Positions 6,749 to 7,729 of a stretch of DNA of 8,372 nucleotides are shown here, piece by piece (within the stretch, counting starts at the first letter, position 1; each line of letters begins with the position of its first letter). The notes beneath the pieces were generated by a model. It was not told where the DNA came from. It searched no databases and saw only the letters and a program-made list of their open reading frames with translations. This DNA comes from a virus (lineage: Duplodnaviria > Heunggongvirae > Uroviricota > Caudoviricetes), in the IMG/VR virus record IMGVR_UViG_2519899564_000011, positions 1-8,372 of that record; one strand, given 5' to 3'. Both the position numbers and the translations under genes were made by a program.

Positions 6749-6868
6749 GACGGAGGATATATGAGTGAAGTAACAGATTTAGTTGTTATTGAAAAAGCAA
6801 ATGCAATGACTGTAATTTAGTCTGCCGACCAGATTGAAGAAATTCTTCAAAAGGTTGAACGTGAAGTT

Positions 6869-7729
6869 ATGTCCTTTGTGCCTGATATCACAACGGCAAA
6901 GGGCAGAAAGGAGATCGCTTATCTGGCGTATAAAGTTGCGCAGACGAAAACATATCTCGATGGTCTTGGCAAAGACCTTGTTGCTGAACTGAAGGAAATT
7001 CCAAAGCTAATTGATGCTAACCGCAAGACAGTGCGCGATCGCCTTGATGAACTGAAAGCCAAGGCGCGCCAGCCTCTTACTGATTATGAGGAAGAACAGG
7101 CGCGGATTAAAGCCGAAGAAGAAGCTAAGGCAGCAGCTGAAGCTCTCGCAAAGCAAATTGAGTCTGACCATGAAATAGCGATTTTGATGGATCGCGAATT
7201 TGACCGCCAAAGAGAAGAGGCAAGACTCAAAGCGGAGCAGGAAAAGCGAGAGCATGAAGAACGCTTAAAAAGAGAAGCTGAAGAGAAAGCCAGAGCTGAA
7301 GCCGAAGCAAAGGCAAAAGCCGAAATTGAAGCAGCAGCAAGGCGAGAAGCAGAAGCTAAGGCCGCAGAGGAACGTGCAGAGCGTGAACGCATTGAAGCCG
7401 AGCAACGAGCACAGCGCGAAGCAAAAGAGGCAGCAGAACGAGCTGAAAGAGAAAAGCATGCGGCAATTGAAGCAGAACGCCGTAAAGCACAGGAGGAGGC
7501 AGAACGAATCCTGCGCGAGGCTGAAGCAAAAGAGCAAGCCAGAATAGCAGAAGAAAAAAGAATCAAGGACGAAGAAGAGCGTAGAGCAAAGGATAAAGCT
7601 CACCGGAAAGAAGTAAATAACAAAATACTTGCTGACCTTATCAAGGTTGGCGCATCAGAAGATGTTGCTAAAAATATCATAACAGCCATCGTAAAAGGCG
7701 AATTATTCGCAACAAAAATAACCTACTAA
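6869..7729 (+). CDS. hypothetical protein with a long E/R/K/A-rich helical domain; an in-frame upstream segment (6761-6817) is cut off by an amber codon
   Basis: 286-aa ORF from ATG 6869, which has no good SD. The strong start GGAGG-N4-ATG at 6761 is in the same frame and is separated only by TAG at 6818-6820. Residues about 70-250 are charged low-complexity (AEAEAKAKAE, EAERAERE). Confidence 0.6.
   Translation: MSFVPDITTAKGRKEIAYLAYKVAQTKTYLDGLGKDLVAELKEIPKLIDANRKTVRDRLDELKAKARQPLTDYEEEQARIKAEEEAKAAAEALAKQIESDHEIAILMDREFDRQREEARLKAEQEKREHEERLKREAEEKARAEAEAKAKAEIEAAARREAEAKAAEERAERERIEAEQRAQREAKEAAERAEREKHAAIEAERRKAQEEAERILREAEAKEQARIAEEKRIKDEEERRAKDKAHRKEVNNKILADLIKVGASEDVAKNIITAIVKGELFATKITY

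Follow-up and report, generated by a model that had tools for sequence, protein, structure and literature searches.

What happens to a phage gene when an in-frame stop codon follows its start after 19 codons? This question is raised by a locus in IMG/VR virus record IMGVR_UViG_2519899564_000011 (Duplodnaviria; Heunggongvirae; Uroviricota; Caudoviricetes). Positions 1 to 8,372 of this record, the whole stretch of DNA analysed here, are referred to as the window. An initial annotation, made from the sequence alone, had noticed that an amber codon at 6818-6820 splits a reading frame opened by an ATG at 6761, and had proposed a recent nonsense mutation (leaving either a pseudogene or a product shortened by reinitiation), a host with an amber suppressor or a sequencing error as possible explanations. 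From the results presented below, the segment from 6761 to 7729 is very probably an inactivated copy of a delayed-early, apparently non-essential gene of lambdoid and P22-like phages, in other words a nonsense pseudogene without a functional product.

An amber codon interrupts the orthologue of Shigella phage Sf6 gene 33

Inspection of the sequence by script confirmed the arrangement described in the initial annotation, both at the start and stop codons and in the continuation of the frame past a second ATG into an open reading frame (ORF) of 286 amino acids. On the plus strand, the ATG at 6761-6763 is preceded by the Shine-Dalgarno (SD) sequence GGAGG at 6752-6756, with a 4-nt gap (ATAT) between them, and the TAG at 6818-6820 is in frame with this ATG, exactly 19 codons downstream. 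The 19 sense codons before the TAG (6761-6820 with the amber codon) encode MSEVTDLVVIEKANAMTVI, and translation of the frame reads MSEVTDLVVIEKANAMTVI, a stop and then SADQIEEILQKVEREVMSFVPD. The second ATG, at 6869-6871, lies in the same frame 16 codons past the TAG, and from it the frame remains open for 286 codons, to a TAA at 7727-7729. The intact orthologue is gene 33 of Shigella phage Sf6 (969 nt, 322 amino acids, NP_958209.1), which has the same start codon, SD sequence and stop as the gene in the window. Intact Sf6 gene 33 and the whole frame from 6761 to 7729 share 98% DNA identity, so the reading of one frame through the stop is no coincidence, and the earlier suggestion that the residues on both sides of the TAG belong to one protein is borne out. 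The pseudogene comprises 322 codons and the stop, broken at codon 20; its limits agree with those given by RefSeq, and its product matches PHROG 1376, a family of unknown function, over residues 1-322, collinear with the intact translation.

Alignment with related genes, as the initial annotation had recommended, identified the ancestral codon. Sf6 and phage CUS-3 read GTA TTT CAG TCT where the window reads GTA ATT TAG TCT, and CAG (Gln) occupies codon 20 in these two phages and in 82 of the 84 loci found to carry the gene. The inactivating change is a C-to-T transition at 6818 that converts CAG Gln20 to TAG, and it is private to the window in comparison with 81 intact alleles. In the adjacent codon, a T-to-A change at 6815 replaces Phe19 (TTT) with Ile (ATT); at least 90% of the distant homologues conserve Phe at this position. 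Every IMG/VR locus with the gene (82 of 82) has TTT CAG, and all except one of these retain an intact 322-codon ORF (81 of 82). An exact-pattern search for the TAG allele in IMG/VR viral contigs found none.

More distant homologues, at 44-60% identity, were recovered from Klebsiella, Citrobacter, Enterobacter, Raoultella, Pseudomonas, Acinetobacter and Aeromonas, and all of them begin at the equivalent of Met1. This is also true of two alignments of distant homologues, comprising 18 and 24 sequences at 38-71% identity. The N-terminal 36 residues are conserved in these proteins, as is S54, and residue 20 is always encoded by a sense codon (Q, K, T, N, A or R). Position 37 is occupied by R, D, G, N or S, so that Met37, the residue encoded by the ATG at 6869, is not conserved. 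The downstream ATG is therefore not a natural start: the homologues begin at Met1, and of F19, S54 and Met37 only the first two are conserved in them. The initial annotation had considered that the upstream frame might be coincidental, in which case related genes would start at this downstream ATG; among the aligned distant homologues we found none that starts at the Met37 equivalent.

Translation signals and constraint downstream of the stop

The two candidate start codons differ markedly in their predicted pairing with the anti-SD sequence. The duplex energy at ATG 6761 is -9.5 kcal/mol, which places it in the top 3% among the 142 ATGs of the window. At ATG 6869 the energy is -3.6 kcal/mol, a value equalled or bettered by 29% of the ATGs in the window, and the sole AAGG nearby is 14 nt upstream, too distant for use as an SD sequence. 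These values support the earlier judgement that ATG 6869 lacks a convincing SD sequence. Ancestral codons 21-36 (6821-6868, plus strand) remain in frame behind the stop, and a scan between the TAG and 6869 for in-frame ATG, GTG and TTG codons found none. From these signals, the 19-codon segment is the only part of the gene that would be expected to be translated efficiently, and the 286-codon remnant ORF starting at ancestral Met37 (6869-7729, plus strand) is the only possible restart product.

We also compared the window with the 81 intact alleles for evidence of constraint. Five changes are private to the window, namely F19I, Q20 to stop, S54Y (at 6921), A203E (7368) and V315L (7703), and there is no private synonymous change. 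Two of the four missense changes fall at conserved residues (F19 and S54). The ratio of non-synonymous to synonymous changes per site (pN/pS) is 0.08 among the intact alleles, compared with 0.22 between the window and the intact alleles. By our own arithmetic from approximately 750 non-synonymous and 213 synonymous sites, and for a small sample, the probability that all four substitutions would be missense is about 0.002 under the constraint seen in intact alleles and about 0.37 under neutrality. That all four private substitutions other than the stop are missense is suggestive of neutral decay, with only four events to go by.

Distribution of the amber allele

A 67-mer centred on codon 20 matched 465 complete Escherichia coli records, 111 of them having exactly ATT TAG. 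The carriers are mostly Shiga toxin-producing E. coli (STEC) of the O26/O103 type, for example O26:H11 11368, O26 RM10386 and O103 RM8385. Among 32 phage records matching the 67-mer, four have ATT TAG, and all four are Stx1a-converting phages (LC744181-4). The identical DNA of O26:H11 11368 is entered in RefSeq as a pseudogene ('internal stop') whose limits equal 6761-7729 of the window. Over 6555-8369, eight genome contexts agree with the window at every base, and in all carrier contexts read the remnant is free of further stops and frameshifts. Gene calls for the exact 286-amino-acid remnant occur in 5395 index blocks of public assemblies, representing thousands of assemblies; an exact look-up of this ORF in a clustered collection did not find it, while the gene-position index holds it.

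Hence the lesion is an ordinary natural Gln-to-amber pseudogene that is already known, in that RefSeq flags it. The initial annotation, in speaking of a recent nonsense mutation, was right about the nature of the change, as is evident from the CAG codon of the homologues, the internal stop recorded by RefSeq and the conservation of the N-terminal sequence. The word 'recent' needs to be qualified, because the allele is fixed, is base-for-base identical in many STEC genomes, occurs in at least three prophage contexts and has acquired four further missense changes.

The same base change in a second allele lineage

Sixteen genomes of the extraintestinal pathogenic E. coli (ExPEC) type have TTT TAG. 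The copy in E. coli MS 110-3 differs from that of phage CUS-3 by one base in 1145 nt, this same C-to-T change, and shares the 14-bp deletion of CUS-3. In CUS-3 itself the split gene (ECRS218_0048/0049) is likewise an inactivated version of the same gene, with the deletion at the window equivalent of 7229-7242, and MS 110-3-type copies have TAG at the same codon as the window. In contrast to the window, this lineage retains TTT at codon 19 and represents a separate allele lineage: the MS 110-3 copy differs from the window allele at 28 sites, including positions 3 nt upstream and 29 nt downstream of the TAG. Owing to the deletion, two ORFs are annotated for the gene in CUS-3.

The probability that a second chance hit, given one substitution in about 1 kb, falls at the same base is roughly 1e-3. 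An independent second mutation, a hot spot and transfer of the base in a conversion tract of less than about 31 nt could each account for the recurrence. Two specific sources of a hot spot were considered and rejected. A Dcm-methylcytosine is excluded as the site is not CCWGG, and templated mutation at a quasi-palindrome is excluded as the change worsens the local palindrome. Programmed read-through or recoding was also rejected, given that the stop is limited to two narrow allele lineages and that all distant homologues have a sense residue at position 20. A UAG followed by U is not known to be a leaky context, and an Rfam scan of the window found no element. The same base change in a second lineage is, in our view, a minor curiosity.

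Alternative explanations for the interrupted frame

We considered four other explanations for the observed arrangement, none of which appears likely. The possibility that the true base at 6818 is C, and that the stop is an error of sequencing or assembly, is negligible. Some encouragement for it comes from a run of six Ts at 5767-5772, where the closest relative has five, a homopolymer-length difference that may be a read error. However, the TAG is a substitution rather than a homopolymer indel, RefSeq records the internal stop, and the same allele, flanking sequence included, recurs in thousands of assemblies, in four phage records and in 111 genomes that were finished independently, all of which refutes the error proposed in the initial annotation. 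Rescue by a host or phage suppressor tRNA, for example a supE-type tRNA-Gln(CUA) that restores Gln and hence the full-length protein, is also very improbable. A CAG-to-TAG change is of precisely the kind that supE suppression restores to wild type, and natural coliforms carrying suppressors have been reported. Nevertheless, ARAGORN scans of the window and of the first 50 kb of the carrier Stx1a phage LC744181 detected no tRNA, and in the carrier strain O26:H11 11368 glnV and glnX are both wild type, with the anticodon CUG. The supE-type tRNA sequence occurs in 155 of 5424 E. coli records; among the 60 of these 155 matches that were listed, all the genomes are approximately 4.5-4.8 Mb in size, most are named K-12 laboratory derivatives and none is an STEC. 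The suggested suppressor host is therefore not supported by the carriers and records surveyed.

A somewhat stronger case, although still an unlikely one, can be made for reinitiation at AUG 6869, giving a 286-amino-acid protein that has kept or gained a function, so that the locus would be a shortened gene rather than a pseudogene. Restarts after early amber codons are known from lacI, an in-frame ATG is available 48 nt past the stop, and 286 open codons follow it, with no added stop or frameshift in any carrier context read. An open frame of this length would be expected in any event, because the allele is young enough for carriers to be 100% identical. Furthermore, the SD sequence at this ATG is weak and misplaced, no homologue starts at position 37, the product would lose the helices predicted at residues 12-20 and 22-38, and the remnant contains three private missense changes, one of them at the invariant S54, with no private synonymous change. 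It is less probable again that the amber codon at position 20 is non-random, arising either at a mutational hot spot or through selection for the stop itself, whether for the 19-residue peptide or for a dose set by read-through. This explanation draws on the recurrence of the same C-to-T change in the TTT-TAG background of the 16 ExPEC-type genomes and on the location of C6818 at the closing pair of a small hairpin, GACTG-TATTT-CAGTC (6808-6822). Against it, neither the distant homologues nor the viral contigs of IMG/VR have the stop, and the gene of the second background was already destroyed by the deletion shared with CUS-3; selection on protein dose is implausible there, since that gene was already dead. 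Among the three interpretations in the initial annotation, the results favour a nonsense mutation that left a pseudogene.

The protein family and the TolA label

Annotation pipelines name members of this family 'cell envelope biogenesis protein TolA', and also 'colicin import membrane protein' or 'antitoxin protein', names that are not supported by any family model. Searches of the product against Pfam (E up to 0.1) and NCBIfam (E up to 0.01) gave no match, PADLOC gave none, and PHROGs returned only families of unknown function. A sequence search of the PDB yielded a single chance-level coiled-coil match, to the coiled region of Zuotin (E = 0.005). In an AlphaFold model of the N-terminal 199 residues (mean predicted local distance difference test score, pLDDT, of 87), helices are predicted at 12-20 and 22-38, followed by a very long helix from residue 46, and a Foldseek comparison of this model with the PDB returned nothing at E below 3. 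The intact 322-residue protein is predicted to be almost entirely helical.

We rejected an identity with TolA, given that there is no match to a TolA, Pfam or NCBIfam model and no fold match in the PDB. The resemblance to TolA of the Tol-Pal system is confined to a long helical region rich in Ala, Glu, Lys and Arg. An N-terminal membrane anchor and a C-terminal TolA domain are expected in TolA, whereas the model of the phage protein has no such anchor and the gene belongs to the early operon of a phage. The name TolA is an artefact of composition, arising from the charged Ala/Glu/Lys/Arg-rich helix. A survey of the literature found nothing specific on the context of Sf6 gene 33, the Stx1a phage accession or 'TolA' genes of lambdoid phages.

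Members of this gene family are often broken. PHROGs 17211 and 21365 are separate families that correspond to the N-terminal 115 residues and the C-terminal 212 residues, respectively, and many of the database homologues retrieved for the family are fragments.

Operon context

The window represents the early region of a lambdoid prophage, as judged from the list of ORFs and from gene names in near-identical annotated DNA. The corresponding DNA of Sf6, 98% identical, is annotated in the order boundary sequence bsq4, terminator tL2A, gene 33, cIII and kil. The equivalent of tL2A in the window is an intrinsic terminator at 6720-6748 on the plus strand, with a stem TTGCCCTC/GAGGGCAA followed by seven Ts, which was identified by a terminator scan and lies at the aligned position covered by Sf6 tL2A (annotated as 'terminator; homology to phage lambda; tL2A'). 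Because this terminator is located directly upstream, the gene can be reached only by N-antiterminated transcription from pL. Given this correspondence with Sf6, the gene at this locus is orthologous to Sf6 gene 33 and a delayed-early member of the pL operon, read only when transcription is antiterminated. Orthologues belonging to PHROG 1376 occupy the same place, after a tL2A-type terminator and bsq4 and before cIII and kil, in mEp234, HK544, IME10, N7, Sf101 and other phages. In Sf6 the gene is intact and has CAG at codon 20, in contrast to the TAG, F19I, S54Y, A203E and V315L of the window.

Downstream of the pseudogene, the next gene of the operon, cIII (7754-7885, plus strand, from the ORF list), is intact and is named 'protease FtsH-inhibitory lysogeny factor CIII' in identical DNA; kil (7870-8022, plus strand) comes next. 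Upstream, a 90-amino-acid ORF at 5348-5620 on the plus strand is one that we read as a putative antiterminator N, from its arginine-rich N-terminus and its position. In related prophages, an ORF of the same length and position carries the Pfam N_peptide domain. From the annotation of near-identical DNA, the minus strand encodes a DnaB-type helicase (768-2144) and a replication protein (2141-2962), and a cI-position repressor lies on the plus strand at 3840-4577. The minus strand further holds a CII-family gene and a small regulator in the cro position.

Two other features of this region were observed. The T6 run at 5767-5772, where O26:H11 11368 has T5, frameshifts a 120-amino-acid gene at 5623 to approximately 5986 (plus strand), just after the ORF in the N position, into ORFs at 5539-5802 and 5771-5986; it marks either another pseudogene or an error in reading the homopolymer. 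On the minus strand, antisense to the pL operon, a 164-amino-acid ORF at 6017-6511 contains two CxxC pairs (CAHC...CPRC). It has no Pfam family, its PADLOC match is at chance level, and RefSeq lists it as a 'hypothetical protein' in O26 11368; related prophages carry sieB at this place.

Mosaic structure of the window

Positions 1-6612 of the window are 99.985% identical to the prophage at 3.29 Mb in O26:H11 11368, the T6 run being the only difference in these 6612 bases. From the terminator region to cIII, that prophage has a different, unrelated set of genes. Over positions 6555-8369, the window exactly matches the family of prophages with the amber allele. Among complete genomes, the best matches to the window cover 87% of it. 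The parental sequences overlap at 6555-6612, as defined by BLAST against the respective loci and extension of exact identity, and this 58-base overlap adjoins the boundary sequence annotated as bsq4 in Sf6 and the tL2A terminator. Since the two parents overlap beside a boundary sequence, the window is a recombinant and 6555-6612 is the crossover zone.

In the eight contexts identical to the window over 6555-8369, the allele resides in a lambda-type prophage with its integrase end adjoining a pectinesterase-family gene, which we take to be ybhC, in the classical lambda attachment region. These amber-carrying lambda-type prophages are often riddled with IS3-family and IS600 insertion sequences (IS). 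One example is the RefSeq pseudogene ECO26_RS04435 of O26:H11 11368 ('cell envelope biogenesis protein TolA'), the DNA of which is identical to 6555-8156 of the window, with the same limits and the same amber codon. This pseudogene is part of an IS600-ridden prophage of lambda O/P type at 0.90 Mb, whereas in the window the allele is linked to a DnaB-type region for replication and immunity similar to that of the 3.29-Mb prophage. The Stx1a phages (e.g. LC744181) share 6627-8369 with the window at 100% identity and represent a third context. The dead allele has therefore passed among co-resident prophages together with the cIII-kil module.

At the other end of the window, positions 8370-8372 are TGA, where all relatives have ACA, inside the erf gene. 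In one relative, an IS600-type end that begins TGAGGTAGCC interrupts the sequence 16 nt beyond this point. With only three bases to go by, the window may therefore stop at the border of an IS inserted into erf.

Discussion

Overall, the most likely state of the locus is that of a true pseudogene yielding a 19-residue peptide. According to the mechanism that we propose, a single C-to-T change at 6818 turned Gln20 (CAG) into amber, so that ribosomes starting at the strong SD sequence and ATG at 6761 would make the 19-residue peptide and then terminate. A restart at ATG 6869, 48 nt further on and lacking a usable SD sequence, would provide at most a trickle of a 286-amino-acid product without the two N-terminal helices, which appears to be free of selection. 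RNA polymerase modified by N resists Rho-dependent polarity. As the gene lies behind N in the pL operon, the modified polymerase would ignore polarity at the interrupted gene, and the downstream cIII and kil genes would continue to be expressed, which would explain the tolerance of the phage for the lesion. We infer both the absence of a functional product and the protection from polarity by N. The gene itself appears to be non-essential, judging from how often it is broken and from its patchy occurrence: many lambdoid phages lack it, and in CUS-3 it was broken independently by the 14-bp deletion. The dead allele is fixed in a resident attLambda-side prophage of O26/O103-type STEC, and recombination at conserved boundary sequences has carried it into other co-resident lambdoid prophages, including Stx1a phages and the mosaic seen in the window.

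Several considerations weigh against this interpretation. There is no Pfam, NCBIfam or PADLOC family, solved relative or fold match for the intact protein, the function of which is unassigned, and its description as non-essential comes from breakage and variable presence, not from experiment. Low-level reinitiation at ATG 6869 or natural read-through of the UAG, usually well below 1%, may still give some product. In addition, the argument for neutrality rests on four substitutions only, and among host genes the suppressor survey was confined to glnV and glnX of one carrier strain and to the supE-type sequence.

In the type of lesion, an early Gln codon changed to UAG in a phage gene, the locus resembles the classical laboratory amber mutations (CAG to TAG, suppressible by supE) of phage genetics. 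Those mutations are conditional-lethal tools, whereas the allele described here is natural and fixed in wild STEC prophages, with no suppressor where examined. The likeness to the restarts of classical lacI genetics lies in the possible in-frame start downstream; at this locus, restart is only a candidate.

For STEC genomics, the common 286-amino-acid 'TolA-like' ORF, taken as a gene in thousands of STEC assemblies, is the 3' end left over from a gene that was inactivated by an amber codon, and its TolA name reflects composition. The locus also provides an example of a prophage accessory gene that decayed in a clonal pathogen lineage and was then moved between co-resident prophages by recombination at boundary sequences. 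The allele is usable as a marker for the exchange of modules among the prophages of O26/O103 strains.

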